Shown one piece after another: positions 3,641 to 59,823 of a stretch of DNA of 64,000 bases (positions are counted from its first letter, which is position 1; every line of letters starts with the position of its first letter). The DNA comes from a virus (Duplodnaviria > Caudoviricetes). The position numbers and the translations under genes are program-made. The DNA lies in the IMG/VR virus record IMGVR_UViG_3300025016_000004, one strand, 5' to 3'. The notes beneath the pieces are model-generated. The model was not told where the DNA came from. It searched no databases and saw nothing but the letters and a program-made list of their open reading frames with translations.

Positions 3641-3901
3641 ATGGAAAATAGAAAAATATTTGTTTGCAGTTGTCATTCACTAGAACACCAATTTGCGTTT
3701 TGGTATGACGAAGAATATAATGAGCTTTATTTTGAACCACACTTACATGATAATTCTTGGCCTTGGTATAAAATATTTTGGCAAAGGTTAAGATATGTAT
3801 TTGGAAACAAATCAAGATTTGGTGCTTGGGATGAAGTAATAATCAAACCAGAAGATGCTAAACAAATAATTGAATACTTAAATAAAATAAGTGAGAATTA
3901 A
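3641..3901 (+). CDS. Hypothetical phage protein
   Basis: ORF track. Confidence 0.65.
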   Translation: MENRKIFVCSCHSLEHQFAFWYDEEYNELYFEPHLHDNSWPWYKIFWQRLRYVFGNKSRFGAWDEVIIKPEDAKQIIEYLNKISEN

Positions 3902-4310
3902 AAAGAAGAACATATTATTTGAAGAAAGGGTTAAATCTAACATGGCCGTACCCAATGAGGTTAAGCAACTTCATTCTTTATTTGTAAAGAATGGGTTTCA
4001 ACTTTATATCGTTGGTGGTGCTGTGCGTGATACCCTTATGGGTAAACCAATCAAAGATTATGACTTAGCAACTGATGCTCCACCAGAAACGGTTGAGAAG
4101 ATGTTGAAAAGTGCTGAAATTAGAACTATTGGAACTGGCGCAGCATTCGGGGTTATTAACGCATATGTAAATGATGAAGAATACGAGATTGCCACATTTA
4201 GGTCTGACGGATTTGATAGTGATGAAGATGAATTAAAAAAATTTAAGGATTATTTGAAATCCTTAAATAATGGTTCTTTTGAAAAGTTTGAAAATAATTT
4301 AATGAAATAG
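3891..4310 (+). CDS. cca: CCA-adding enzyme, N-terminal fragment of a split gene
   Basis: VGGAVRD..GKPIKDYDLAT and EIATFRSD, followed by an unrelated 33-aa tail. Confidence 0.85.
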   Translation: MRIKKKNILFEERVKSNMAVPNEVKQLHSLFVKNGFQLYIVGGAVRDTLMGKPIKDYDLATDAPPETVEKMLKSAEIRTIGTGAAFGVINAYVNDEEYEIATFRSDGFDSDEDELKKFKDYLKSLNNGSFEKFENNLMK

Positions 4311-4343
4311 CGACTTTTAGACTTATTTCTCATATTTATTAAT

Positions 4344-5018
4344 ATGAGAAAAGGTTATATATATGAATTAGTTTGTCCTATTACGAATGAATGTAGGTAT
4401 ATAGGGCAAACAATACAAGAATTAAATAAAAGGTTATATAAGCATAAATATTGTATGCGAAATAACCCTAGTCATAAAAATAGTTGGTTAATCAAATTAT
4501 CTAATGAATCTTCATTAGATAATTTGATTATAAAATTAATTGAAGAATGTGATAGTGATATTTTAAATGAACGTGAAATTTATTGGATTGAAAAATATCA
4601 AAATGAAGGTTATCAGCTAACTAATATGACTGAAGGTGGTAATTGTGGTTCTAGAGGTTATAAACATACTAAAGAAGCCATTAAGAAGATTGCCGAAGCT
4701 GGGAAAAGAGTTGGTTATAAACATACTAAAGAAGCGAAAAAAAAGATATCAAATTCATTACTAGGTAAGAGAGGTAGGAATACTGGAAACAAACATTCAA
4801 TAGAAACCAAAAAAAAGATATCTGAAAGTAAGAAGGGAATTGTGAGTTGGAATGCACAACCAGTTTTACAATTAGATAAAGAAGATAAAATAATAAACGA
4901 GTGGAGAAGTGCTAAATATGCCGCTGAACAACTTAGTTTGAGTCAAGGTAATATTTGGGCGGTTACTAATGGTGATAGAAAAAGTTGTGGTGGATATAAA
5001 TGGATTTTAAAAAAATGA
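4344..5018 (+). CDS. GIY-YIG homing endonuclease with NUMOD3 repeats
   Basis: GYIYEL...RYIGQT, repeated HTKEA motifs, NUMOD1-like C-terminus. Confidence 0.85.
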   Translation: MRKGYIYELVCPITNECRYIGQTIQELNKRLYKHKYCMRNNPSHKNSWLIKLSNESSLDNLIIKLIEECDSDILNEREIYWIEKYQNEGYQLTNMTEGGNCGSRGYKHTKEAIKKIAEAGKRVGYKHTKEAKKKISNSLLGKRGRNTGNKHSIETKKKISESKKGIVSWNAQPVLQLDKEDKIINEWRSAKYAAEQLSLSQGNIWAVTNGDRKSCGGYKWILKK

Positions 5019-5200
5019 ATAAATTGAAAAGAAAAGTTGGAGATAAAGTTACTTTGAATGATAAATTTGGTAATGATGAAGGAAAAGAAGCAATAATTAA
5101 CTCAATAGAAACTTCTAAAAATGGTAGAGAGTGGTATCGACTAACTTATAAAGGTAAATTAGACCCATGGAATTGGTGTGATTCAGATTTTAAAAATTAA
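5015..5200 (+). CDS. Small hypothetical protein inside the cca insertion
   Basis: ATG overlaps the endonuclease stop (ATGA). Confidence 0.55.
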   Translation: MNKLKRKVGDKVTLNDKFGNDEGKEAIINSIETSKNGREWYRLTYKGKLDPWNWCDSDFKN

Positions 5201-5201
5201 T

Positions 5202-6086
5202 ATGAAAACTTGGAAAGATATAGCTAAAAAAACAGTACCTAATGAATTTAATACATTCATGAAGGGTAAAGGCAGAAGACCTGATTCTGTAATATTTTCT
5301 GATATTGAAACTGATGTTAAAAGACGTGATTTAACAATCAATGCATTATTCTACGATATTTCAACAAAAGAGATAGTAGATTTAGTTGGTGGCATAAAAG
5401 ACATTAATAATGGTGTTGTAAGGACCGTAGGAGACGCTGGAGAGCGTTTTGGGGAAGATAGACTAAGAATCCTTAGAGCAATTAGATTTGCGGGTAGAAC
5501 GGGTTCTAAATTAGACCCAGCAATTGATAAGTCATTAAGACAAGATAATTCATTAGAAGGTATTTCTGGTGAACGTATTATGGATGAGTTTGTTAAAGGT
5601 ATCAAATCAGCGAAATCAACTAAATATTTTTTATCATTAATTGATAAATATAATTTATTTGATTGGATTTTTAAAGGTATTTCACCAATTAACAAACAAT
5701 TCATTGAGTCTAATGACCCAATATTAGTTATAGCGGTATTACTAAAGGATGTATCATATGATACTATCAGTAAACAATTGAATGCGCTTAAGTATTCATC
5801 CAATCAAATAAAACCAATAGTATTTATGGTAGCTTATTACCAATATTTCTCTAAAGATACTTTTTATACGTTGAAAAAAATGTATAATACTTTTGAGGCA
5901 AATGGTAATACGTTTTTATCATTCATAGAGCTTATGGGTGGTAACACTGAAATTGCACGTAAGTTTATCAATTATCAGCTATCAATTACTGGTGATATGG
6001 TAAAACAAAAATACGGAATGAAAGATGGTCCTGAATTAGGGGCTAAGATAAAAGAGTTAGAAACTCAACAGTTTTTTAAAATATAA
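5202..6086 (+). CDS. cca: CCA-adding enzyme, C-terminal fragment of a split gene
   Basis: GRRPD..DVKRRDLTINALFYD, EDRLRILRAIRF, SGERI motifs. Confidence 0.88.
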   Translation: MKTWKDIAKKTVPNEFNTFMKGKGRRPDSVIFSDIETDVKRRDLTINALFYDISTKEIVDLVGGIKDINNGVVRTVGDAGERFGEDRLRILRAIRFAGRTGSKLDPAIDKSLRQDNSLEGISGERIMDEFVKGIKSAKSTKYFLSLIDKYNLFDWIFKGISPINKQFIESNDPILVIAVLLKDVSYDTISKQLNALKYSSNQIKPIVFMVAYYQYFSKDTFYTLKKMYNTFEANGNTFLSFIELMGGNTEIARKFINYQLSITGDMVKQKYGMKDGPELGAKIKELETQQFFKI

Positions 6087-9110: not shown

Positions 9111-9116
9111 CAAAAT

Positions 9117-10947: not shown

Positions 10948-11031
10948 TGCGGTGTAGTCAGTAGATGGAAGCTTGCGAGGCTCATAACCTCGTGCCGAAA
11001 GGCCCCACGGGTTCGAGTCCCGTTGCCGCTA
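10948..11031 (+). tRNA. trnM: tRNA-Met(CAT), initiator-like, with an extra variable-arm hairpin
   Basis: 1:72 mismatch; CGAGG-CTCATAA-CCTCG; GCC-GAAA-GGC variable arm. Confidence 0.85.
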
Positions 11032-11130: not shown

Positions 11131-11760
11131 ATGGAATGTTTAGTGTGCGAGTTAAAATTGGGTAAGGGTAGAAGAAAATTCTGTTCAGATGATTGTAGAA
11201 AACAAAATAGAATTTTACAATATAAAAAAACTGGTAATCCTAATTCTTATTCAAGACAAGTGTCTAAACATAGGTTTCGTAAATTTAATCTTATTGAGTT
11301 ACGTAATAATAAAGGGTGTGAAGAATGTGGTTATATTAAAAATATAAGTGCGTTAGATTTTCATCACTTAGTTCCAAAAGAAAAAGATTTTACGTTAGAT
11401 GCTAGAAATTTAGCTAATAGGGGTTGGGAAGAAATTTTAGTCGAATTTAGTAAATGTAAAATTCTTTGTGCTAACTGCCATAGAGAAGAACATAACCCAG
11501 ATTTAAATTTTAAGGATAGGATTAAATTTGATGAAATTGGTGAAAAAATAAAAAAAGAATCTAAATGTGTGGAATGTAATGTGAAAATTCATAATACCGC
11601 AAGTAGATGTAAAAAATGTTTTGACATGTCAAGACGAAAAAATGATAGACCAAGTAATGTAATATTGCTTGAAGATATTAAAGAATTAGGGTATAGTGGT
11701 ACTGGTAGAAAATATGGTGTTAGTGATAATACTATAAGAAAATGGGTTAAAAACTCATAA
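11131..11760 (+). CDS. HNH homing endonuclease with zinc ribbons and a C-terminal HTH
   Basis: LDFHH...KCKILCANCHREEH; stop lies inside the tRNA anticodon loop. Confidence 0.88.
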   Translation: MECLVCELKLGKGRRKFCSDDCRKQNRILQYKKTGNPNSYSRQVSKHRFRKFNLIELRNNKGCEECGYIKNISALDFHHLVPKEKDFTLDARNLANRGWEEILVEFSKCKILCANCHREEHNPDLNFKDRIKFDEIGEKIKKESKCVECNVKIHNTASRCKKCFDMSRRKNDRPSNVILLEDIKELGYSGTGRKYGVSDNTIRKWVKNS

Positions 11761-11794
11761 ACTCTACGGGGTGGTTCGAATCCACGATACGCTA
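11754..11794 (+). pseudogene. 3' half of tRNA-Met(CAT)
   Basis: CTCATAA...GTGG-TTCGAAT-CCAC...CGCTA. Confidence 0.65.
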
Positions 11795-11892
11795 CTTTGG
11801 AAGTTTAGTAAGTTTTTCCTTAAAAACAACTTACAAATTATATATCGATAAGTAATTGCCTTGATGGTTGGCTGTAAATAAATTATCATTAT

Positions 11893-11979
11893 GGGTGAGT
11901 AGCTCAGTGGGCCAGAGCGGTTGATTGTTAATCAAAGGGCCTTTATAGGTTTACGTGGGTTCGAATCCCACCTTGCCCT
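11893..11979 (+). tRNA. trnN: tRNA-Asn(GTT) with a long variable arm
   Basis: GTTGA-TTGTTAA-TCAAA; 18-nt variable region. Confidence 0.8.
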
Positions 11980-12167
11980 CAAATCTTAATAATTATGGAA
12001 AAATGTAGTTAAAGAATTGGTTCAAAATTTAAGAGCCAGTGGGATTAACGTCACATATTATGATAATCCAAGTAAAGAAAAGATTGAACGTATTAATAAA
12101 CGTTTGGTAGAATTAAGAAAAAGAAATTCCTTTTAGTCCCTGAAGAAATTCAAACTTTAAGGTGCAA

Positions 12168-12193
12168 TCTTCAATAGCTCAGTTGGTTAGAGC
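12168..12193 (+). pseudogene. 5' fragment of a tRNA (Asn-type)
   Basis: TCTTCAA-TA-GCTC-AGTTGGTTA-GAGC. Confidence 0.6.
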
Positions 12194-12199
12194 TAAAAT

Positions 12200-12271
12200 T
12201 CTTCTCTCGTATAAAGGTTATTACGGGTGACTGTTAATCACTTTATCTAGGTTCGAGTCCTAGGGGAAGAG
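12200..12271 (+). tRNA. trnN: tRNA-Asn(GTT)
   Basis: Canonical cloverleaf with G73. Confidence 0.88.
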
Positions 12272-12345
12272 AGTTGTCGATATTAATCCACTTCCACGTA
12301 GTGACAACTGGTAATAGATGAATTCATCTAGCTAGGAGGTTAATA
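12272..12345 (+). ncRNA. HDV-like (theta-type) self-cleaving ribozyme candidate at the tRNA-Asn 3' end
   Basis: P1 AGTTGTC/GACAACT, P2 TATTAATC/GGTTAATA, P3 ACT/AGT, L3 TCCACGT, P1.1 GG, P4 TAGATG/CATCTA, J4/2 GCTA. Confidence 0.72.
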
Positions 12346-12588
12346 AACGTTCATTAAGTATCTTGGTGATTATATCAAGATACTTTTGGGATGTCTTAGG
12401 TTTAACATAAGTTTGGCTACTTGTATCGATAATACATAAATCAATCTTTAAATCATGACAGGCTTTTGATTTAGATATATCATTCTCTTGAATCTTTTGT
12501 AATTTATTGTTACCATATATAGGTTCATAATGAAAGATACCATTGTTTTAGAGTTGTTAAATTCTTCTTGGGTATATAATGGTTTCAT
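12332..12588 (-). pseudogene. Internally deleted PD-(D/E)xK-type endonuclease remnant
   Basis: MKPLYTQEEF... joined out of frame to GIFHYEPIYG..KLQKIQEND. Confidence 0.55.
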
Positions 12589-12632
12589 AAAGTTATTTAT
12601 TTATAAATATGTTAACATTTATAAAAGACGTT

Positions 12633-12652
12633 TTCGAGTCCTAGGGGAAGAG
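12633..12652 (+). repeat. 20-bp duplication of the tRNA-Asn 3' end (other copy at 12252-12271)
   Basis: TTCGAGTCCTAGGGGAAGAG. Confidence 0.85.
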
Positions 12653-20491: not shown

Positions 20492-21060
20492 ATGAAACTT
20501 TTAGAAAGTCTAAAAGGGTATAATTGTTTAGGTGTAAAAATTTCTCGCCCCTCTCAGGTATTGATTATCATGAGAGGGGTACCGTGACAGGTTCTGGTAA
20601 ATCAACGAAAGCAAAAACATTGGTTGGTGAAGGTGTTGTTCATTCAACAGATGATTTAATTGACGCAACTGGTGACTATAATGGTTACTTTAAAAAAATG
20701 GTAGATTCAGGTGATTGGTCTGAACATGGTAGGATGCATAATAAGAATTTCTTAAATGCTAAAAAATCTATGGAATCTGGTATTACACCAGTTATCGACA
20801 ACACTAATCTAAGATTAAGGGAAGTTGAAAATTATATTATTGAAGCTCTTGAATTAGGTTTTGATGAAAACAATATTAAAATTGTAGATGTAGGTTTGGG
20901 TGGCCAAACTGCCGAAGTATTGGCAGAACGTAATTCACATAACGTACCGTTAAAAACAATTCAAAAAATGATACAAACTTATAATTCAGTAGGTGAGATA
21001 ACTGTATCTAGGGTTGTTGAAAACTATTTAAATAAACAAAAGAAAAGGGCTAATAATTAG
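20492..21060 (+). pseudogene. AAA_33/polynucleotide-kinase-like gene with two frameshifts near the P-loop
   Basis: LIIMRGVP[+TGACA]GSGKST...IDNTN...RNSHNVP. Confidence 0.7.
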
Positions 21061-22223: not shown

Positions 22224-22886
22224 ATGAAACTGAGAAAAATATACGATGATATGATTAATGAAGATAATACAAATATCAAAGCTTCTGAGCCTAAAAAATA
22301 CGTAGAAGCTGCATTAAAATTAGGTTTTGATGAGAATAATATAAAAATTATTGATGTTGGTGATGGTGGAGTTTCTGCTGAAGATTTGGCTAAAAGAAAT
22401 ACACATAACGTACCATTGAAAACAATTCAAAGAATGATGGCATCACATAAAGGTGTTGGCCTATTAACTGTAGATAAGATATTACAATCAGAAGGCGGTT
22501 TAAAAAACAATAAACCTGAAAAGATTTTATATGCGGCAGTAGTTTTAGATAATGAATCTAAAAATAAATTATTAAATTCTTTAGAAATCCCAGAAGGGTG
22601 GAAAGCTTTTGCGCATCATATGACAATAGTTTTTGGTAAAGGATTGGATGATAAAAATGAAGTTGGTAGAACGGTTTATTTAAAAGCAACTGAAGTTGGT
22701 TATAGTAATTTAGCTATGGCTGTTAAGGTTATTGGCTATCCATCAACCAATGACATACCACACATAACAGTAGCGGTAAATGTTGCGGAAGGTGGTAAAC
22801 CGTTTCTTTCAAATAAGATAACTGATTGGAAAACTCTTGATAGTCCAATTCATTTAAGTGGGGTAGTTGAAGAATTAAAGTCATAA
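22224..22886 (+). CDS. Kinase C-terminal part fused to a 2H cyclic phosphodiesterase (Trl1 CPD-like)
   Basis: DNTN...RNTHNVP, then HHMT and PHIT motifs. Confidence 0.75.
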   Translation: MKLRKIYDDMINEDNTNIKASEPKKYVEAALKLGFDENNIKIIDVGDGGVSAEDLAKRNTHNVPLKTIQRMMASHKGVGLLTVDKILQSEGGLKNNKPEKILYAAVVLDNESKNKLLNSLEIPEGWKAFAHHMTIVFGKGLDDKNEVGRTVYLKATEVGYSNLAMAVKVIGYPSTNDIPHITVAVNVAEGGKPFLSNKITDWKTLDSPIHLSGVVEELKS

Positions 22887-22931: not shown

Positions 22932-24291
22932 GTGAACTACCCACCCACGCCAGAGGCGATGGGTTGGGCTTCTGATTTCACAGACTTGTGCTTCTTTATA
23001 GAAGTCTTATTTGAGTCTCCATCAGTGTTATCGAGCATCCCACCCGATATTATTTTTAAACCTTCTTTGAGAATATTTCTACTTGCATTTACATCTCTGT
23101 CGTGTATTACACCGCACGAGTTACAAGTCCATTCTCTATCAGAAAGTTTTAAATTTTGATTTATCCAACCACAGTCTCCACAAGTCTTCGAGCTAGGATA
23201 GAAACGATTAACTTTTACAAGTTCTTTTCCATACCAATCACACTTATATTGAAGTAATGTAACAAAATTACCCCAACTTGCATCGGCAATATGTTTTGAT
23301 AATTTGTGGTTTTTAATCATACCTTTTACATTTAAGTCCTCAACTGATATTAAATCATATTGATTAACCAGTTTATGTGAAACCTTATGTAAAGTGTCTA
23401 ATCTACAACTTGCAATTTTCTCGTGAATTTTAGCAACTTTGAGTTTTTGTTTTTCAAACCCATTACTACCTTTTTGTTTACGAGAAAGATGTTGTTGTGC
23501 TTTTTTTAATTGTTTTGCATATTTTTTTGTATATCTATTATTTTTGAATTTAGCATTATCAGAAGTAATTACAAAATCCTTTAAACCTAAATCTATTCCA
23601 ACTTGTTTATTTGTTTTAGGTAATTCTTTATTCTGTTGTTCTGTAAATATTGAAACATAATATTTACCTGTTGGTGTTTTGGTAATTATCATTTTACCAA
23701 TCTTACCTTTGACTTCTCTGTGAAGTTTAACTTTAATACCTTCTTTAAATTTTGGTATATTAATTTTATCTCCTTCTATACTACCAAATTGAGGTATGGT
23801 AAAAGTATTTTTATGTTTACGAGATTTAAACTTTGGGAATTGTGCATTACCTCTAAAAAAGTTTAAAAAAGCTGTATCTAAAGAGCGTAGAGCGAATTGT
23901 AAAGTTTGACTATTAACTTCTTTCAACCACATAGTCTTTTCTTCTTTTTTAAGTTTTGTCAAAGTGGCAGCTTGTTTGTAATAATTGTCAGACTTTTTAT
24001 CCGCTTGGTATTGTTCTTTGCGTTCATTTAGAAAATGGTTATACACCCAACGAGAGTGACCAAAGTGTTGATTTAATAGCACTTCTTGCTCATTTGTTGG
24101 AAAAAGACGAAACTTATATGTCTTATTAATCATTTTCATACCTATTATACATCAAAATTTATGCCAAAATATAGTTTTATGTAAATTTGTCATACTTAGC
24201 CGTTCAATATATTTTAAGCCAAGGTTAATCATACCTTTGTCGCTTACATCCCATCCACGCTTTGCGATGAATGGGTTTTACGCTCCTTTTT
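22932..24291 (-). mobile_element. tnpB-only IS200/IS605 (IS1341-like) element
   Basis: Left end after TTTAT, right end GTAGTTCAC, subterminal hairpins. Confidence 0.88.
22937..24139 (-). CDS. tnpB: TnpB RNA-guided nuclease, apparently intact
   Basis: HTH, GIDLG, VEDL, zinc finger, DRDVNA. Confidence 0.95.
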   Translation of the reverse strand: MKMINKTYKFRLFPTNEQEVLLNQHFGHSRWVYNHFLNERKEQYQADKKSDNYYKQAATLTKLKKEEKTMWLKEVNSQTLQFALRSLDTAFLNFFRGNAQFPKFKSRKHKNTFTIPQFGSIEGDKINIPKFKEGIKVKLHREVKGKIGKMIITKTPTGKYYVSIFTEQQNKELPKTNKQVGIDLGLKDFVITSDNAKFKNNRYTKKYAKQLKKAQQHLSRKQKGSNGFEKQKLKVAKIHEKIASCRLDTLHKVSHKLVNQYDLISVEDLNVKGMIKNHKLSKHIADASWGNFVTLLQYKCDWYGKELVKVNRFYPSSKTCGDCGWINQNLKLSDREWTCNSCGVIHDRDVNASRNILKEGLKIISGGMLDNTDGDSNKTSIKKHKSVKSEAQPIASGVGG

Positions 24292-24953: not shown

Positions 24954-25477
24954 ATGAATTTCTAAAAACTCTAATGGTTATAATGTAGCAAAAGGTGGGG
25001 ATGGTGGTGATACAATATCTAATCATCCAGATATTGAACTTATTAAAGAGAACGTTTTCTAAATTTCATTCAGGTAAAGTTTTATCTGATGAACATAAAC
25101 AGAAAATTAGTGATGCTCATAAAGGAATGAAAAAACCTTGGACTAAAAAAACAGCTAAGATGATGGCTGAAGGTAATATAGGTAAAGAATCTCCATTAAA
25201 GGGCACTACTTTAACTGAAGAGCATAAACAGAAAATTAGTGAAGGTAATAAAGGACAGAAAAAAGTTTTTACCGAAGAACATAAAAAAAATATTGGTAAA
25301 GCAAATAAAGGGAAACATTCACAATTAAAAGGTAAATCTTACGAAGAAATTTATGGTGTGGAGAAAGCACGAGAAATGAAATTAAAGCAGAGTAAGAAAA
25401 GAAAGAATAGAGTTGTTAGTGAGGAAACTAAAAAGAAGATTTCTGAATCAATGAAAAAAAGAAAAAATGGGAAATGA
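24954..25477 (+). pseudogene. NUMOD3-repeat endonuclease remnant
   Basis: GYNVAKGGDGG is out of frame with the EHKQKIS repeats. Confidence 0.65.
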
Positions 25478-26057
25478 ATTAAGTATAGTTAAGTACATTA
25501 AAGAGTATGGCTTGGATAATGCAGTTAATACATTTAAATTAACTTGTAAGGATTATGGATACAAGATTTTACTCAAATACAATCAAATAGAATCTGACAT
25601 GTCTTTACCTGAAGTACAAGATTGTAGAGGTCTTATACTTGAGAAAGATACTTGGAAGGTTATGTCTTTGGCATTCAGAAAATTCTTTAATTCAGCTGAA
25701 ACACATGCGGCTAAAATAGATTGGAACACAGCACTTATTTTAGAAAAATGTGATGGGTGTTGTCACGGGGATACCATATTGATAACTGAGGGTGGTGAAA
25801 TGACAATTCGTGATATATGTGAAACGGAATATTCTGGTAAAGTTTTATCATTTGATTTAGAAACTAATGAGCCAATATATGATGAAATAGTGGATTATTC
25901 AATTAAAAAGAATATTAATAATTGGTTTGAGATTGAATTAGAAAATGGTACTATTATTAAGTTAACTGGTAATCATAAAGTATGGTTACCTAATTTAGAG
26001 TGCTATCGTAGGGTTGATGAATTAACCGAAGATGATGAATTCTTACTAATTACTTAA
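25467..26057 (+). CDS. RNA ligase (Rnl1-like) N-extein plus split intein N-part
   Basis: FRKFFN...EKCDG | CCHGDT...LTGNHKVW. Confidence 0.88.
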   Translation: MGNELSIVKYIKEYGLDNAVNTFKLTCKDYGYKILLKYNQIESDMSLPEVQDCRGLILEKDTWKVMSLAFRKFFNSAETHAAKIDWNTALILEKCDGCCHGDTILITEGGEMTIRDICETEYSGKVLSFDLETNEPIYDEIVDYSIKKNINNWFEIELENGTIIKLTGNHKVWLPNLECYRRVDELTEDDEFLLIT

Positions 26058-26093
26058 AAAACTTGACACCTATCAAACTTTTCTAATAGTATA

Positions 26094-26369
26094 AATATTA
26101 GTAATGGATTAAAAGAGGTTTGGTCTAATTTATCTGATGATGAATTTAATAAAAGAATGATTAGATTACATAAAAATTTTGTATCGAAATTAGAGGTTAG
26201 AGTTAGGAATATATTAACTAATTTGAACATATCATTCACGCCACAATTTCCATTAAATAATCGAACATATGATATTAAAATTGATAATACTAATATATTG
26301 ATTGAAGTTAATGGTGATTTTTGGTATGCCAACCCATCGCCTTTGGCGTGGGTGGGTAGTTCACAGTAG
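26094..26369 (+). pseudogene. Endonuclease remnant between the intein halves, fused to an IS right end (26330-26364)
   Basis: IEVNGDFWYANP, then GGGTGGGTAGTTCAC. Confidence 0.65.
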
Positions 26370-26451
26370 GGGGTGTAAAAGCCATTCATCGTTATTTGTA
26401 GGGCCGCTGTGAGTTAGTGGGGAGTCTAACAAGTATAATAAATAATAGAAT

Positions 26452-27414
26452 ATGAAAATAGTTAAGGTAAAACATATTAAAGAGATAGAATGTGACTCTA
26501 AGAGGTATGATATTCAAACCAAAGAAACCAATAATTTCTTTGCTAATGGGATATTGGTACATAACTCATTGATTCAAGTATATTGGGATTGGGTAGCTGA
26601 AAAATGGTGTGCTGGCACATCTGGTATGGCCGAAGGTGAAGGTGAAGTAAATGATAAACCAAATACTAAGTTTTCTGAATTATTTTGGGATACAATTACA
26701 TCACCAAAATATGGTTTTAATTGGGATAGAATGGTTAGAGGTAGAACATATATGTTTGAATTAATGACACCGTATAATATTGTTGTTTGCCCACATGGAG
26801 AATCAAAAGTATCATTATTAGGTGTTAGAGATTTAGATACGTTAAATGAGTATGGTTTTAATGATTTATATACAATATCTACTGATATTGGGTTACCATT
26901 AGTTAAATCTTTTAACATTAATGCATCAAATGCTGGTCATTTAATGGCGACATTTGAAGGTATGTCATTCTCTGAAGAAGGTTATGTTGTAGTTGATGCT
27001 AATTTCAATAGAATCAAGTTAAAAAACCCAGCTTATGTTGCAATGCATTATACTAAAAGTAAATTAGGTAATCACCATATATTAGAGGTGTTAAAAACTA
27101 ATGAAGTTGATGAATGGATTGCAACGTTCCCAGAAAGGTCTGAAGAAATAATTCAACTTAAAGAAGGGTTAGTAAAATTGACTGATGATTTGGAAAATGC
27201 TTGGGTAGAATTAATACCATATAAACCTAAAAACATAACTAAACAAGAACAAAAGAGGTTTGCGATGAAAGTATTTGAAGTATCTAATAAACACTTCAAA
27301 AATACTCGTCACACTGGATTGTTTTTTGGGTTAAAAGATGGTAAAATTAACACGATTAGAGAATATATAATCAATATGAATAATAAAGATTTATATGAAA
27401 TATTAACAAAATAA
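26452..27414 (+). CDS. Split intein C-part plus RNA ligase (Rnl1-like) C-extein
   Basis: YDIQT..NNFFANGILVHN | SLIQVY; EEGYVV; RIKLKNP. Confidence 0.88.
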   Translation: MKIVKVKHIKEIECDSKRYDIQTKETNNFFANGILVHNSLIQVYWDWVAEKWCAGTSGMAEGEGEVNDKPNTKFSELFWDTITSPKYGFNWDRMVRGRTYMFELMTPYNIVVCPHGESKVSLLGVRDLDTLNEYGFNDLYTISTDIGLPLVKSFNINASNAGHLMATFEGMSFSEEGYVVVDANFNRIKLKNPAYVAMHYTKSKLGNHHILEVLKTNEVDEWIATFPERSEEIIQLKEGLVKLTDDLENAWVELIPYKPKNITKQEQKRFAMKVFEVSNKHFKNTRHTGLFFGLKDGKINTIREYIINMNNKDLYEILTK

Positions 27415-31234: not shown

Positions 31235-32062
31235 ATGGTAATTACAACATGGTGTGAATTAGTAAATGGTAGGTGGGGTTACTCAAAACACCTATCTAAG
31301 ATAAAATTTCCGATTAATATGGTTAAATGTGATGATTGTAATCACATATATAATGAAAGGTTTGATAAAACAAATAAAAGGTTTGAAAAAAATGAAAAAG
31401 ATTTGTGTAAAAATTGTGTTAAAGAGAAAGAAGCTAAAAGACTTTCAGAGGTAGGTAAAAAAGCTTTAAGTAAAATATCAAAAAAAGATAGAACCAAAAA
31501 TGCTAAATTGGGTGGTGAAGCATCATCTTTGAATCATAACAATTCTGGTAGATTTTCAACGGAAAGGTGGGAGTCTATGAGTAAAAAAGAGCAAAATAAA
31601 CAAGTAACAAGAGCAAATAAGGCATTACACGATAAATTAAATTCAGATGAAGAATTTAGATTAAAACATTATTTAAAGATTTTTAAAAATTCTAAAATTG
31701 GTTTTACATCTAAAGGTCATAATGAATTACATGATTTTTTAAAAGAATATGGATTTAAACAGCACCATGTAATAGATAAACTTGAGGTTGATGAATGTAA
31801 TGTTAATAGAAAAATCGTTGTGGAATATAATGGGGATTTATATCATTGTAATCCTAGAAAATATGATGGTGATTACTACAACACAGCAATTAAAATGATT
31901 TGCTCTGATAAATGGGAAAAGGATAGAAAAAGAACTTGGTTATTAAAAAGAAAGGGATATAAAGTTTTTGTTGTTTGGGAAGATGATTGGTATAAAAATA
32001 GGGAAAAAATTAAAAATAGATTAAATAAATTTATTAATAATGAAATTAAAAAAGATAAATAA
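31235..32062 (+). CDS. Free-standing Vsr-like/DUF559-type endonuclease between the intein halves
   Basis: VDECN..VEYNGDLYHCNP...D..R..L...GY.V..VWE. Confidence 0.78.
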   Translation: MVITTWCELVNGRWGYSKHLSKIKFPINMVKCDDCNHIYNERFDKTNKRFEKNEKDLCKNCVKEKEAKRLSEVGKKALSKISKKDRTKNAKLGGEASSLNHNNSGRFSTERWESMSKKEQNKQVTRANKALHDKLNSDEEFRLKHYLKIFKNSKIGFTSKGHNELHDFLKEYGFKQHHVIDKLEVDECNVNRKIVVEYNGDLYHCNPRKYDGDYYNTAIKMICSDKWEKDRKRTWLLKRKGYKVFVVWEDDWYKNREKIKNRLNKFINNEIKKDK

Positions 32063-32999
32063 AATAAAAGAAAGAAGGTCATTTGACCTTACGATACAAG
32101 ACACAAATTGTTTTTTTGTAAATGACATTTTGGTGCATAATTCAAATGCGGGTATTGGACATACTGAAAATGATGGTATTTGGGCACAATCTAGAAGTAA
32201 TATTATAACTCCTGAAAATGATAATATGGGGTTTGCAAGGTATGTTGAAGATAATAAACAAGCATTCCTTGAATTGGTTGAACATGTTAGATATGTAAAC
32301 CATAAGATTAACCCAAACGATACTGTTATTGTATTCGGTGAATGGGCTGGTAAAGGCATCCAAAAAGGAGTTGCAATATCTCAAATAGAAAAGTCATTTT
32401 TCATATTTGACGTAAAAGTTGTACCTGAAGATAGTACTAAACCATATCATTTAGCTTCTCACTATTTAAGAGATATTGACCATAGAATTTATAATGTTGA
32501 AGATTTCTTATCTTATGAAATCGAAATTGATTTTAATAGACCTGATTTGGCTCAAAATGAATTAAGTGAGATTACCATTGCAGTTGAAGAATTATGCCCC
32601 GTAGGTAAAGCTTTTGGTATTGAAGGAATTGGTGAGGGTGTGGTTTGGTGTGCAACGGTTGATGGTCATGATTACCGTTTCAAAGTGAAGGGTGAACGAC
32701 ATAGCGCATCTAAAGTTAAGACTTTAGCTAAAGTTGATACTGAGAAAATAAATTCTATCCATGAATTTGTTGGTTACGCTGTAACTCAAAATAGATTTGA
32801 ACAAGGTATGGGCATTATTTTCCCTAACGGAGATATTGACATTAAAAAAATGGGTGATATCATTAGATGGGTTGTGAATGATATTATGGCCGAAGAAAAG
32901 GATGTTTTAGAAGATAATAACCTCCAATCAAAAGATGTCAACAAATACATTTCAACAAAGGTTCGAGAACTCTTTTTAGAGGAATATAATAAACTTTGA
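32040..32999 (+). CDS. Split intein C-part plus RNA ligase (Rnl2-like) C-extein
   Basis: FDLTI..FFVNDILVHN | SNAG; FGEWAG; GEGVVW; FKVK. Confidence 0.88.
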   Translation: MKLKKINKIKERRSFDLTIQDTNCFFVNDILVHNSNAGIGHTENDGIWAQSRSNIITPENDNMGFARYVEDNKQAFLELVEHVRYVNHKINPNDTVIVFGEWAGKGIQKGVAISQIEKSFFIFDVKVVPEDSTKPYHLASHYLRDIDHRIYNVEDFLSYEIEIDFNRPDLAQNELSEITIAVEELCPVGKAFGIEGIGEGVVWCATVDGHDYRFKVKGERHSASKVKTLAKVDTEKINSIHEFVGYAVTQNRFEQGMGIIFPNGDIDIKKMGDIIRWVVNDIMAEEKDVLEDNNLQSKDVNKYISTKVRELFLEEYNKL

Positions 33000-35686: not shown

Positions 35687-36244
35687 TTGTATCTTTGTAT
35701 TGTGAATACAACATTTAAAATAAAAGGTAAGATAGTTTTTGACCCACCAGACATCACTTCTAAACATAAGAAGCAAGCTGATTGGAAGAAAGTCGCATTT
35801 GTAGAATTTGATGGTGACATCAAAGCTTACTACAGATGGTTTGTGAAAAAAAGATATAATCTTATTTTAGGAGAATCAATTAGAAAGGCTCATGTAACAT
35901 TTATAAACGACAGTCATAGAGATATGGGTGATAATGTTAAGAAATGGGATGATGTTAAGAAGAAATGGGATGGAAAATCAATTGAAGTTAACTTATCAGT
36001 TGATGTTAGGTCCGATGGTATCAATTGGTGGTTGGTTGTACCAGAAGAAGGTAGGGAAGAGTTACATGCGATTAGAGCTGAATTAGGGTTAGGTAGACCT
36101 TATTTTGGTTTACATATGACATTTGGTATCGCTAGAGATGCCAAAGATGATGATTTTGAAGGTAACGGTGTGAGAGCTGTTAGACAAAATGAAGAACATT
36201 CAAGATACATTCTTGGATTAATAGATAAAGGATTGATAACATGA
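35687..36244 (+). CDS. 2H phosphoesterase-like protein
   Basis: Two HxT motifs (AHVTF, LHMTF). Confidence 0.65.
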   Translation: MYLCIVNTTFKIKGKIVFDPPDITSKHKKQADWKKVAFVEFDGDIKAYYRWFVKKRYNLILGESIRKAHVTFINDSHRDMGDNVKKWDDVKKKWDGKSIEVNLSVDVRSDGINWWLVVPEEGREELHAIRAELGLGRPYFGLHMTFGIARDAKDDDFEGNGVRAVRQNEEHSRYILGLIDKGLIT

Positions 36245-36824: not shown

Positions 36825-37145
36825 AATATATTTGTTTTTTATATATATAAATATGCCGAAAATTTGGAAAATCAGACAAAATGTAGTATAATTGCGTTAA
36901 GAAACAATTAAATTACAACAAATTAAAAAAAAAGTGGGGATTTCATTTGGTAATCCCAGATTTTATTTTTATGGTTGTACCAACACCTCATGATAAAATA
37001 TTAGAAAATAGTAGAAAAGATTGTAGTTGTAGTAATGTTAAGACCGAAAGGTTTATGTATATAGATGCAATTAAATATTAAAAATTATTTAGTTATTTAA
37101 AATAATTTACATACCTTTGAAGAGTTAATATAAAATTTTTTGAAA

Positions 37146-38429
37146 ATGATTACTAAAGAAAATGGTTTAAGGTATGCAAAATTAGTCCATGTATCAGTTG
37201 ATAATGGGTTAACATCTCAAAGTAATAAGGTGTATATAATGGAAGAACAACCTGATGGTAGAATCAAATGTGATTATGGTCGAGTTGGTAAAGATTTAGT
37301 GACTGTCTACAAGCGGTCACACGAATGGAATAAAGTTCTTCAAAGTAAAACAAACCCTAGAAAGGGTTATCAAGATGTTACAGACCTTATTGCTGAAACC
37401 ACAACAACCTCTTCAAATAGTACATCATCAAAAACAGCTGATATTAAAGATAATCAAGTAAAACAATTATTTGATGATTTAATGGCTTATGCAAATAAAT
37501 CAATCCAAAGAAACTATAAGGTTACACAAGATGCTGTAACTCAAGCACAAATTGATGCCGCTCAAGAAGTTTTAACAAAAGCTTCAGGATTGGCTAAAGT
37601 TGGTGTTAATGTTAAAGAAATCAACGACTTATTAATAAGACTGTACACCATCATTCCAAGAAAAATGAAAGATGTTCGTGATTATTTGATTGATGCTGCG
37701 GATGATAAAGATGATTTAGATAAGATAAAAAACTTCTTAGCTAACGAACAAGATACATTAGATACAATGGCTGGTCAGGTAAAACTTATTAGTCAACAAA
37801 AGGGTTCAACCATTGATGATGATTTAGATGGTGATGGGGAAATTACCTTATTAGAACAAATGGGGTTAGAGGTGTCTGTTGAAACTGACCCTAAACAATT
37901 AGAATTGATAGATAGATTGGTTGGACCAACTAAAGATAGACTTAAAAAGGTTTATAAATGTGTTAATAAGAAAACACAAGCTGTATTCGATAAACATTAC
38001 GGTAATGCTAGATTTAAAGACAGAAAATTATTCTGGCATGGGTCTAGAAATGAAAATATTTTTAATATAATCCAATCAGGATTATTAATTAGACCTTCAG
38101 GTGCAGTTCATACGGGGTCAATGTTTGGTGATGGAATATATTATGCTAATAAGGCTCAAAAATCATTAGGTTATACTTCAGTAAGAGGTTCTTATTGGGT
38201 AAATGGTAGTTCTAATAAGGGTTATTTATTGTTATATGATGTTTATCATGGAAAACAAAAAGATATTTATAAACATGATTCTAGTTGTTACTCATTATCT
38301 CAAAAAGTAATGGATGATGAAGGTTATGATTCAGTTTATGCACATGGTGGAGCGGATTTAAGAAATGATGAATTCATTATTTATAACCCAAAACAGTGCA
38401 CTATTAAATATATAATTGAGATAGTCTAA
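37146..38429 (+). CDS. PARP-like enzyme: WGR, regulatory and catalytic domains
   Basis: YGRVG; FWHGSR..N; GSMFGDGIYYA..AQKS; NDEFIIY (H-Y-E triad). Confidence 0.9.
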   Translation: MITKENGLRYAKLVHVSVDNGLTSQSNKVYIMEEQPDGRIKCDYGRVGKDLVTVYKRSHEWNKVLQSKTNPRKGYQDVTDLIAETTTTSSNSTSSKTADIKDNQVKQLFDDLMAYANKSIQRNYKVTQDAVTQAQIDAAQEVLTKASGLAKVGVNVKEINDLLIRLYTIIPRKMKDVRDYLIDAADDKDDLDKIKNFLANEQDTLDTMAGQVKLISQQKGSTIDDDLDGDGEITLLEQMGLEVSVETDPKQLELIDRLVGPTKDRLKKVYKCVNKKTQAVFDKHYGNARFKDRKLFWHGSRNENIFNIIQSGLLIRPSGAVHTGSMFGDGIYYANKAQKSLGYTSVRGSYWVNGSSNKGYLLLYDVYHGKQKDIYKHDSSCYSLSQKVMDDEGYDSVYAHGGADLRNDEFIIYNPKQCTIKYIIEIV

Positions 38430-43776: not shown

Positions 43777-43861
43777 GCACTAGTGCTCCGAGTGGTCGAA
43801 GGGGGTGGTCTGCAAAACCGCCAGAGAAATCTCAACGTTGGTTCGAATCCAACCTAGTGCT
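43777..43861 (+). tRNA. trnC: tRNA-Cys(GCA) with a long variable arm
   Basis: GTGGT-CTGCAAA-ACCGC; U73. Confidence 0.9.
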
Positions 43862-43873
43862 CAAAATAAAAAT

Positions 43874-43959
43874 GCGGCCATAGTTCAGTAGGTCAAGAGC
43901 ACCACCCTTACAAGGTGGGGGCGAATAGTATAACGGGGGTTCGAATCCCTCTGGCCGCA
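43874..43959 (+). tRNA. trnV: tRNA-Val(TAC) with a long variable region
   Basis: CCACC-CTTACAA-GGTGG. Confidence 0.85.
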
Positions 43960-47423: not shown

Positions 47424-47514
47424 AACAGTACCAGCGCATAACGGTTGGTGTACCTGACTGTCACTCAGGTTTGGTTTATCCATGTAGCGGGTTCGACTCC
47501 CGTTGTAGTTGCCA
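47424..47514 (+). tRNA. trnD: tRNA-Asp(GTC) with a long variable arm and encoded CCA
   Basis: ACCTGA-CTGTCAC-TCAGGT. Confidence 0.7.
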
Positions 47515-49765: not shown

Positions 49766-50884
49766 CTAATGGCTCACGTTAGCGTACAAAGGGTTGTCCC
49801 TAACCCCGAAATTCTTTATGTTATATGCAGCGTTTACATCTCTATCAATTGAATTACCGCACTTATCACAATCATAAGTTCTATCTAAAAGTTTTAAATC
49901 TTTCTTGTGGTTTCCACAGTTAGAACATACTTTACTGCTTGGTTCAAACCTTCCAATTACAACAAGATTTTTACCTTGCCATTCAGTCTTATATTCAAGC
50001 ATTGTTCTTAATTGTCGCCAACCCATATCAGATATTGCTTTAGCTAAATTATGGTTCTTAACCATATTACTAACAGACAAATCTTCCAATACAATTGTAT
50101 TATAAGATTTAACTAATTCAGTAGATATTTTGTGCAAGTAATCAGTCCTTTGGTTACGAATTTTTTCTTGCAGTAATGCTACTTTTAATTTTTGTTTTTC
50201 TCTATTTATTGAGTCTTTCTGTTTTCTTGCAAGGCTTCTTTGTTCAACTCTTAATCTTCTTTGTTGTGATTTAAAGAAGTTTTTATTTTCATATACTACA
50301 CCATCAGAAGTAATAGCTAAATCTTTAATTCCAAAATCAATACCAACAGATGTTTCAGTTTTAATTGATTTTTTCTTTGGTTTTTCGGTTTGAGTATCAA
50401 CCAATATTGAAACAAAATATTTACCAGTTACTGTTTTAGTTAATGTAACTCTTTTAGGTAAACCTTTAAATTCTCTGTGGTAATCAATAGCAACTTCTTT
50501 TAATTTAGGTAGCTTTAGTATTCCCTCTTTAAACGATATTTCAAATCCTTGTGGAAACGTAATTGACTGTTTGGAATACTTATTTTTAAATTTAGGAAAT
50601 TGACCTTTACCCTTAAAAAAGTTTTGATATGCTGTATCTAAATTGATTATGCTATGTTGTAATACTTGACTTGGACATTCTTTAATGTAGTCAAATTCTT
50701 TTCTCAATTCTGGAAGTTGTTTTATTAAATCATATTTAGATATTGATTTTTTATTTGAGGCATACGCAACAGTCTTGGTTTCCAACCCCAAATTATAGAC
50801 AAGTCTATTTACACCAAAATACCTTTGTAGTTGGTCTTTTTGGTCATCTGTTGGAAATATTCTGTATTTGTATCCTTTAAGCAT
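49766..50884 (-). CDS. tnpB: TnpB, apparently intact
   Basis: GIDFG, LEDL, zinc finger, DRDVNAA. Confidence 0.95.
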   Translation of the reverse strand: MLKGYKYRIFPTDDQKDQLQRYFGVNRLVYNLGLETKTVAYASNKKSISKYDLIKQLPELRKEFDYIKECPSQVLQHSIINLDTAYQNFFKGKGQFPKFKNKYSKQSITFPQGFEISFKEGILKLPKLKEVAIDYHREFKGLPKRVTLTKTVTGKYFVSILVDTQTEKPKKKSIKTETSVGIDFGIKDLAITSDGVVYENKNFFKSQQRRLRVEQRSLARKQKDSINREKQKLKVALLQEKIRNQRTDYLHKISTELVKSYNTIVLEDLSVSNMVKNHNLAKAISDMGWRQLRTMLEYKTEWQGKNLVVIGRFEPSSKVCSNCGNHKKDLKLLDRTYDCDKCGNSIDRDVNAAYNIKNFGVRDNPLYANVSH

Positions 50885-59736: not shown

Positions 59737-59823
59737 CTAGGGGTTAGAGCAGATGGCTAGACTCGCTTGCCTTGGGTGCAAGAGTTAGAAATAACATCGT
59801 GGGTTCGAATCCCACCCCTTAGA
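59737..59823 (+). tRNA. trnP: tRNA-Pro(TGG) with a long variable arm
   Basis: CTTGC-CTTGGGT-GCAAG. Confidence 0.85.

Follow-up and report, generated by a model that had tools for sequence, protein, structure and literature searches.

A predicted HDV-like self-cleaving ribozyme directly behind a tRNA-Asn gene of a large aquifer phage

HDV-like ribozymes at the 3' ends of phage tRNAs are already known from gut phages: in 2024, Kienbeck et al. (PMC10879173, and a preprint) described theta ribozymes, a minimal form of HDV-like ribozyme associated with tRNAs in gut Caudoviricetes. Four theta ribozymes in the position of a tRNA 3' end cleaved in vitro, a C-to-U change abolished the activity, and tRNA nucleotidyltransferases were 250-fold enriched in phages with theta ribozymes; more than 80% of theta ribozymes were in gut phages, and many ribozymes of this kind had no adjoining tRNA (PMC10879173). 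L4 is shortened in the final theta motif, and the listed examples in the portion of the paper compared here have an L4 of 6–7 nt, P3 of ACC/GGU, and G at position +1 (PMC10879173). The classical HDV-like families (HDV, CPEB3, drz-Agam, and drz-Fpra; RF00094, RF01787, and RF02682) are five-helix nested double pseudoknots with a P4 helix, a 2-bp P1.1, and a catalytic C that opens J4/2, features that they share with the candidate described here. The candidate scores far below the gathering thresholds of these families (13.3 versus 37 bits). To our knowledge, the classical families have not been linked to tRNA 3' ends. In the HDV-like fold, the C at the first position of J4/2 serves as the general acid and cleavage yields a 2',3'-cyclic phosphate, and HDV mutagenesis has shown that the +1 position affects the cleavage rate.

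The candidate lies in a 64-kb stretch of viral DNA (the window; G+C content 30.8%) that carries 33–35 tRNA genes, most of them on the + strand (ARAGORN, Rfam). The window sequence is present at full identity in 23 metagenome runs (groundwater or aquifer, 2017), and the source of the ribozyme is a large aquifer phage. A search of a phage collection for a close relative of the window returned matches of tRNA length only, and the muramidase neighbour was discarded as a route to relatives because it brought up unrelated 40-kb contigs. The following features were identified in and around the candidate.

12200–12271, + strand: tRNA-Asn, anticodon GUU at 12233–12235 (Rfam RF00005, 53.8 bits; ARAGORN tRNA-Asn)
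12272–12345, + strand: predicted HDV-like self-cleaving ribozyme, 74 bases (unique descriptor match; top of an independent covariance model; orthologs)
12272–12278 with 12303–12309, + strand: P1, 7 pairs, all Watson-Crick
between the P1 5' strand and P2, + strand: J1/2, GA
12281–12288 with 12338–12345, + strand: P2, 8 pairs, one of them G-U
C12289 with G12336, + strand: extra pair next to P3, spanning the bulged A12337
12290–12292 with 12300–12302, + strand: P3, ACU/AGU
12293–12299, + strand: L3, UCCACGU, enclosed by P3
C12294 and C12295 with G12311 and G12310, + strand: P1.1, 2 bp
12315–12320 with 12325–12330, + strand: P4 hairpin, 6 bp, loop AAUU
12332–12335, + strand: J4/2, CUAG, with the putative catalytic C12332 first
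12335–12588, – strand: decayed homing-endonuclease-like gene (C-terminal fragment 12335–12547; N-terminal ORF 12448–12588, 46 codons)

The T-stem of tRNA-Asn(GUU) ends at 12263 and is followed by the 7-nt acceptor strand (12264–12270) and the discriminator G12271, after which CCA is not encoded. ARAGORN places both ends of this tRNA one base off those of Rfam, with the 3' end one base later; given the Rfam end at 12271, A12272 is the first base past the discriminator. The claim of the first-pass annotation that the ribozyme starts exactly after the discriminator is thus borne out, both by this tRNA end and by an 8-nt distance from the T-stem that recurs in relatives. No + strand ORF of at least 25 codons runs across the ribozyme. 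On the 5' side of the tRNA, 12166–12198 is a look-alike of the acceptor strand and D arm, in which the D hairpin is perfect (GCUC...GAGC) and the matching 3' half is absent; it may be what is left of a tRNA gene that was displaced.

The nested double pseudoknot of the HDV fold is present at 12272–12345 in its strand order (P1-P2-P3-L3-P3'-P1'-P1.1-P4-J4/2-P2'), with a cytosine, C12332, at the first position of J4/2 and a 2-bp P1.1. Every helix and loop named in the earlier annotation (P1, P2, P3, L3, the GG of P1.1, and P4) was recovered at these positions. The annotation had also proposed a J4/2 of GCTA with the catalytic C at 12332; the cytosine was retained, and J4/2 was redrawn as the 4-nt CUAG because the C12289-G12336 pair across the bulged A12337 gives the same J4/2 as in the relatives described below. 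In place of the G1·U wobble of the HDV fold, the pair at the cleavage site is a Watson-Crick A12272-U12309. Other weak points are the two A-U pairs in P3, the A/U-rich P2, and the fourth base of J4/2, which is G rather than A. The single-sequence minimum free energy fold of the region, computed without pseudoknots, has a z-score of –1.4, which says little since pseudoknots lie outside the model.

Compared with theta ribozymes, the predicted cut site likewise coincides with the 3' terminus of a phage tRNA that lacks an encoded CCA, with an offset of 0 from the tRNA end, where up to 5 nt on either side is accepted for theta ribozymes. The phage also encodes a tRNA nucleotidyltransferase, as phages with theta ribozymes often do, although here the gene is split (3891–6086). 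The candidate matches the theta examples compared exactly in L3 (U-CC-ACGU), in the GG of P1.1, and in the CUA that opens J4/2, and in the same examples P1 is likewise 7 bp and P2 7–8 bp. Theta ribozymes have a minimal L4, whereas 20 nt, including the 6-bp P4, separate P1.1 from J4/2 in the window. Further differences are the A at +1, where the theta examples compared have G, and the P3 of ACU/AGU; in the part of Supplementary Data 1 that was counted, the core with ACU occurs 0 times and that with ACC 1439 times. The host range and the tRNA differ as well, with an aquifer phage rather than gut phages and an ordinary sense tRNA-Asn rather than a suppressor; the ARAGORN list of tRNAs in the window holds no suppressor. 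The earlier assignment to the theta type therefore holds for the predicted function at the tRNA end and for the shared core but not for the minimal theta structure, from which P4, the A at +1, and ACU/AGU depart. The locus would extend tRNA 3'-end processing by HDV-like ribozymes from the minimal gut forms to a full, P4-bearing form, and to a large aquifer phage and an ordinary sense tRNA.

The first-pass annotation had suggested a motif or Infernal search as a check. A structural descriptor was written with a 3-bp P3, an L3 of U-[CGU]-C-N-C-G-N, a 2-bp P1.1, a perfect P1 of 6–7 bp, a perfect P2 of 6 bp or more, and a C no more than 7 nt from P2'; it was composed after the candidate had been seen. 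On both strands of the window, this descriptor matched once, at 12272; when the whole window was shuffled 300 times with dinucleotides preserved, only one shuffle contained any match. The window has about 35 tRNA 3' ends, and the coincidence of the match with one of them to the base adds approximately three further orders of magnitude. The motif search thus singled out the candidate site, and no second ribozyme was found in the window when any L3, mismatches, or an 8-nt L3 were allowed or when the scan was anchored at every tRNA end.

At the gathering threshold, Rfam identified only tRNAs in the window and no ribozyme family. With E-values of up to 10 allowed, drz-agam-1 alone aligned weakly to P3, L3, P1', and P4 (13.3 bits, against a threshold of 37). 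A canonical theta ribozyme behind a tRNA-Leu (L119:1965–2019) also falls below threshold, with 23 bits versus 44 for RF02682 and 13.8 bits for drz-agam-1, so the Rfam miss of the candidate has little weight; Rfam 15 has no family that captures the tRNA-linked theta-type class. A covariance model was then built from 31 minimal ACC-type ribozymes, none of which had been retrieved with the core of the candidate, using P2, P3, and sequence only. With filters off, this model gave its best score in the window to 12273–12322 (20.1 bits, E about 0.02), ahead of a next match with an E-value of 0.35. As P4 cannot be accommodated by the model, the 3' part of the alignment is wrong and the score is a lower bound. 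An Infernal search therefore ranks the site first with our own theta-type model and leaves it below threshold with the HDV-like models of Rfam.

Relatives of the candidate were sought in viral sequences (IMG/VR). The 15 specified core bases, ACUUCCACGUAGU-N7-GG, matched 70 viral stretches, and full P1 and P2 helices, with many different sequences, could be formed at 34 of these sites, compared with 5 of 3500 flank-shuffled sequences. The canonical ACC/GGU core, used in a second scan, added 118 stretches, from which 92 distinct ribozymes could be parsed. A T-arm is recognisable within 45 nt upstream of 79 relatives, and 70 of these start exactly 8 nt past the T-stem, as does the copy in the window; this is the position right after a discriminator with CCA not encoded. 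With ARAGORN, 22 of the 35 unique ribozymes from the core-search loci lie no more than one base from a tRNA end, next to tRNAs of ten isotypes. The first position of 81 tRNA-adjacent relatives forms a G1·U pair in 68 and is A in 12; these 12, together with the orthologs described below, make the A at +1 a recurrent natural variant. Of the parsed relatives, 68 have a J4/2 of CUAA and 4, counting the window, have CUAG. Where P2 and P3 are separated by a single base, that base forms a pair, in 59 of 66 cases, with the nucleotide two positions 5' of P2', so that one nucleotide is bulged, and this extra pair takes all four Watson-Crick forms (U-A 32, A-U 16, C-G 10, and G-C 1).

Covariation was assessed in an alignment of 26 sequences, in which 97% of cells are paired, versus 27–37% when the partners are slid. 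All seven P2 pairs have changed on both sides, P2 pairing having been a selection criterion, whereas the extra pair across the bulge and the change in P3 were not among the demands of the descriptor. The extra pair is kept in 25 of the 26 sequences (UA 18, CG 5, AU 1, and GC 1); in P3, the third pair is U-A in 20 sequences, as in the window, and C-G in 6, as in canonical relatives; and the CG pairs of P1.1 are invariant in all 26. P4-bearing relatives are common. Those next to tRNAs (for example L009, L019, L047, L123, L269, and L272; IMG/VR, metagenome) share with the window the core, the bulged extra pair, the 8-nt start from the T-stem, and a layout of NAA(C/U)-P4-(G/A)G-CUA(A/G), and differ from it in helix sequences by compensatory changes. 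Dozens of structured relatives recovered by the core search carry a P3 variant that did not appear in the part of the published table that was counted, and the published theta census therefore probably undercounts the family. The additions made here to what was known are modest: an ACU/AGU subclass that has P4 and a bulged P2, and an overlap with a homing-endonuclease gene that is described below.

Several tRNA-linked HDV-like ribozymes occur on single viral contigs, four sites on one (L014) and three on another (L026). The P3 variants ACC, GCC, and ACU stand side by side on these contigs and thus coexist in one genome. The idea that the ribozymes precede terminators at operon ends was rejected, as terminator-like hairpins followed 37 of 121 ribozymes, compared with 28% of shuffled sequences and 29% of tRNAs that have no ribozyme.

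Two of the P4-bearing relatives are orthologs of the locus, sharing the tRNA isotype, the gene order, and the flanking endonuclease. A metagenome scan with the tRNA end and the core as the pattern found nothing, and one with the end of P2, P3, L3, and P3' returned the contigs L269 and L272, each with tRNA-Asn(GUU) ending in G73 and a ribozyme directly 3' of it. Their tRNA clusters are ordered much like that of the window (His, Trp, Ser, Ile, Asn, Asn, and Arg in L272), and the acceptor stems of the three tRNA-Asn genes differ by compensatory changes. In an alignment of the three ribozymes, pairs form in 94.9% of cells, compared with 22–53% for slid partners. The observed 94.9% is reached by 22 of 500 shuffles, a control that is weak for so few sequences; the slid controls are clear. 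Double compensatory changes were observed in P1 (pair 4, U-A to C-G in L272), in P2 (A-U to G-C), and in the closing pair of P4 (U-A in the window, C-G in both orthologs). Both orthologs have A at +1, and the longest P4 of the three is that of the window. With three orthologs and compensatory changes among them, the locus is a clean test case.

An opposite-strand gene adjoins the ribozyme at all three loci. In the orthologs it is intact:

L272:7124–7801, – strand, and L269:1187–1861, + strand: intact 225-aa endonuclease-like gene, convergent with tRNA-Asn and the ribozyme

The 225-aa ORF had no match in a Pfam search and matched PHROG families of HNH and homing endonucleases with E-values of 1e-8 to 1e-6. 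The approximately 200 nt 3' of the ribozyme in the window are 76–81% identical to the orthologous contigs, and a tblastn search of the window with the 225-aa ORF gave 84% identity over 68 aa for the C-terminal fragment (12335–12547), plus residues 1–24. This downstream stretch was considered as an RNA element and rejected, as it is the C-terminal coding part of the opposite-strand ORF. A hairpin at 12356–12385 (z –4.8) is likewise taken as incidental, being within the decayed gene and not conserved in the orthologs. The open frame of the minus strand extends to 12335 and is followed by a TAG codon, the complement of C12332-U-A, so the endonuclease gene overlaps J4/2 and P2' by 13–14 nt. In the relatives, these last 13–14 nt of the ribozyme are also under coding constraint from the opposite strand. 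At all three orthologous loci, the 3' end of the ribozyme overlaps the stop codon of the opposite-strand ORF, an arrangement that is new here. The endonuclease neighbour is broken in the window only, and there the ribozyme is intact despite the decay of the adjoining gene.

The fold with its cytosine and P1.1, its conservation with compensatory changes, and the exact tRNA register are observed, and we consider it very probable that 12272–12345 is an HDV-like self-cleaving ribozyme that forms the 3' trailer of tRNA-Asn and cuts between G12271 and A12272. The position claimed earlier, for a cut after G73, agrees with the family and ortholog covariation and with the exact adjacency to the tRNA; from these we infer self-cleavage at 12271/12272. 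The ribozyme would be transcribed as the 3' trailer of tRNA-Asn(GUU), the double pseudoknot (P1, P1.1, P2, P3, and P4) would fold, and C12332 together with Mg2+ would break the G12271-A12272 bond. Cleavage would free a CCA-less tRNA that ends at the discriminator with a 2',3'-cyclic phosphate, while the ribozyme would remain on the downstream RNA with a 5'-OH end. The cyclic phosphate could be removed by 2H or kinase-type enzymes of the phage or by host enzymes, and the CCA-adding enzyme of the phage could then build the CCA end. The locus thereby raises a concrete step, the removal of a 2',3'-cyclic phosphate before CCA addition, for which the genome has candidate end-healing enzymes:

3891–4310 and 5178–6086, + strand: CCA-adding tRNA nucleotidyltransferase gene in two pieces (Pfam PolyA_pol 1–80 and 73–126, plus RNA-binding domains)
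4344–5018: GIY-YIG/NUMOD endonuclease ORF that splits the CCA-adding enzyme gene
20524–21060, + strand: P-loop polynucleotide-kinase-like ORF (Pfam AAA_33, E 1.9e-5; PHROG polynucleotide kinase, E 1.7e-5)
22224–22886, + strand: probable 2H phosphoesterase, HMTI ... HITV (Pfam tRNA_lig_CPD, E 1.2e-3, below cutoff)
35687–36244, + strand: second probable 2H phosphoesterase, HVTF ... HMTF (paired H-x-T motif scan)

The pieces of the CCA-adding enzyme match the NCBIfam CCA tRNA nucleotidyltransferase, and no group I intron was matched by Rfam at the insert, which may be either a self-splicing intron or a free-standing cassette; in L272, an uninterrupted 387-aa ORF (1025–2188) covers the homologous DNA. 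The first 2H candidate resembles tRNA_lig_CPD, the cyclic-phosphodiesterase domain of fungal tRNA ligase, and this domain is found on a minority of the members of its atlas neighbours (0.96). The atlas neighbours of the second are 2H-SAK and Acb1 clusters (0.93–0.94), and on this basis it could equally be an Acb1-type cyclic-nucleotide hydrolase. Searches of PDB sequences with both candidates gave nothing useful. The kinase-like ORF adjoins the first 2H gene and is near a T4 RnlA-like ligase, which contains an intein, and an Rnl2-like ligase; DNA similar to the kinase and first 2H genes also follows the tRNA cluster in L272. Judging from gene content, the kinase, 2H, and ligase genes resemble a T4 Pnkp/Rnl-type module for RNA repair, which might also heal the tRNA end made by the ribozyme. 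The 2H candidates are surrounded by RNA-repair genes with another evident task, and a CPD-type 2H enzyme would leave a 2'-phosphate that may yet prevent CCA addition. Of the earlier proposal that the 2H and CCA enzymes in the window finish maturation, the gene content was confirmed, with the CCA gene split and the 2H assignments probable, whereas the role is one that these enzymes might have. The two ligase genes (25467–27414 and 31235–32999) have matches to intein splicing domains at ORF boundaries, which suggests that they are intein-interrupted or otherwise broken.

Among the 35 tRNAs called by Rfam in the window, 33 lack an encoded CCA; the two exceptions carry it after 9838 and 60390. In 31 of the 35, a C directly follows the tRNA, and a C-A/T-A trailer (CAA or CTA) follows approximately 26, for example at 9111, 9514, 10656, 10806, 11980, 13064, 43862, 46912, and 47647; this trailer may be a shared 3'-processing signal. 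It is absent behind the ribozyme-linked tRNA-Asn, where the opposite-strand endonuclease gene abuts the tRNA–ribozyme unit and would thereby account for the missing trailer. The abutting gene is likely the reason that tRNA-Asn alone has a ribozyme.

A broader reading, which we regard as doubtful, is that tRNA-Asn, the ribozyme, and the convergent endonuclease gene make up a functional cassette, that the P4-bearing ACU/AGU form is a missed non-gut subclass, and that the phage 2H enzyme and kinase heal the ends. If it is true, the ribozyme would provide a context-independent tRNA 3' end that lets a selfish endonuclease gene sit directly behind it; P4-bearing ACU/AGU forms with a bulged P2 would be a widespread subclass overlooked by the published theta descriptor; and cyclic-phosphate ends would be healed by a phage CPD-like 2H enzyme and a kinase before CCA addition.

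A run from an aquifer metatranscriptome contains a 431-nt contig that is identical to 12218–12648 and thus bridges the predicted cut site, extending from inside tRNA-Asn to about 10 nt before tRNA-Ser. This is the only part of a 3-kb stretch that the run covers, and the uncovered parts carry no weight. The contig could be uncleaved precursor, a transcript antisense to tRNA-Asn from the endonuclease remnant, or DNA carry-over; as contigs give neither strand nor abundance, it is neutral on cleavage.

The contig would fit an account in which the fold is real and its main job lies elsewhere, in severing sense read-through before it runs antisense into the endonuclease gene or in providing a structured 5'-OH end, with the tRNA end as a by-product. 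The stop-codon overlap at all three orthologous loci fits such a role, as do the many ribozymes of the theta kind that are not beside a tRNA (PMC10879173). Against it, the exact discriminator register is kept here and in 70 of 79 relatives, the ribozyme is intact in the window although the endonuclease gene is dead, and most relatives are not known to have a convergent endonuclease neighbour. We therefore consider a read-through role very improbable. The bridging contig would also suit a decayed, catalytically dead relic of the theta type, weakened by the A1-U pair and by P3, with the tRNA end made by host nucleases, and the candidate indeed deviates from the consensus in three places, the +1 position, P3, and the fourth base of J4/2. 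The same departures recur, however, in covarying relatives (A1 in 12 of 81, ACU/AGU at 34 structured sites, and CUAG in 3 others), and all pairs are kept in the three orthologs through compensatory changes, which makes a dead relic very improbable.

An unremarkable minimum free energy fold (z –1.4, pseudoknots not included) and the lack of an Rfam match above threshold would be in keeping with a chance resemblance in A/T-rich non-coding DNA. Any match arose in only 1 of 300 shuffled windows, though, the match is exactly at a tRNA end, and chance is contradicted by both the family and the ortholog covariation. Coincidence as an account of the locus can be given next to no credence, and for the ribozyme structure itself chance is excluded. 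The preferred reading thus remains a tRNA-linked ribozyme that is placed to cut after the discriminator of tRNA-Asn.

The window has several other features near tRNA genes or of mobile or RNA-related type. Six tRNAs are long (84–91 nt; 10948–11031, 11893–11979, 43777–43861, 43874–43959, 47424–47514, and 59738–59822) and have long variable regions or inserts; their isotypes are Met, Asn, Cys, Val, Asp, and Pro, for which tRNAs are normally short-armed. The first tRNA-Asn (11893–11979) has an 18-nt variable region. Between tRNA genes lies an HNH endonuclease-like ORF with many Cys pairs (11131–11760), followed at 11765–11795 by a T-arm-like motif, GGUUCGAAUCC, that was not called by the tRNA finders. 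Two IS605 OrfB/TnpB-like genes with a Cas12f-like TNB domain are on the – strand (22937–24139 and 49766–50884), and an IS200-type Y1 transposase match was also found within the window. A 429-aa ORF at 37140–38429 has a C-terminal PARP catalytic domain (E 5e-24), a domain that is unusual in phage.
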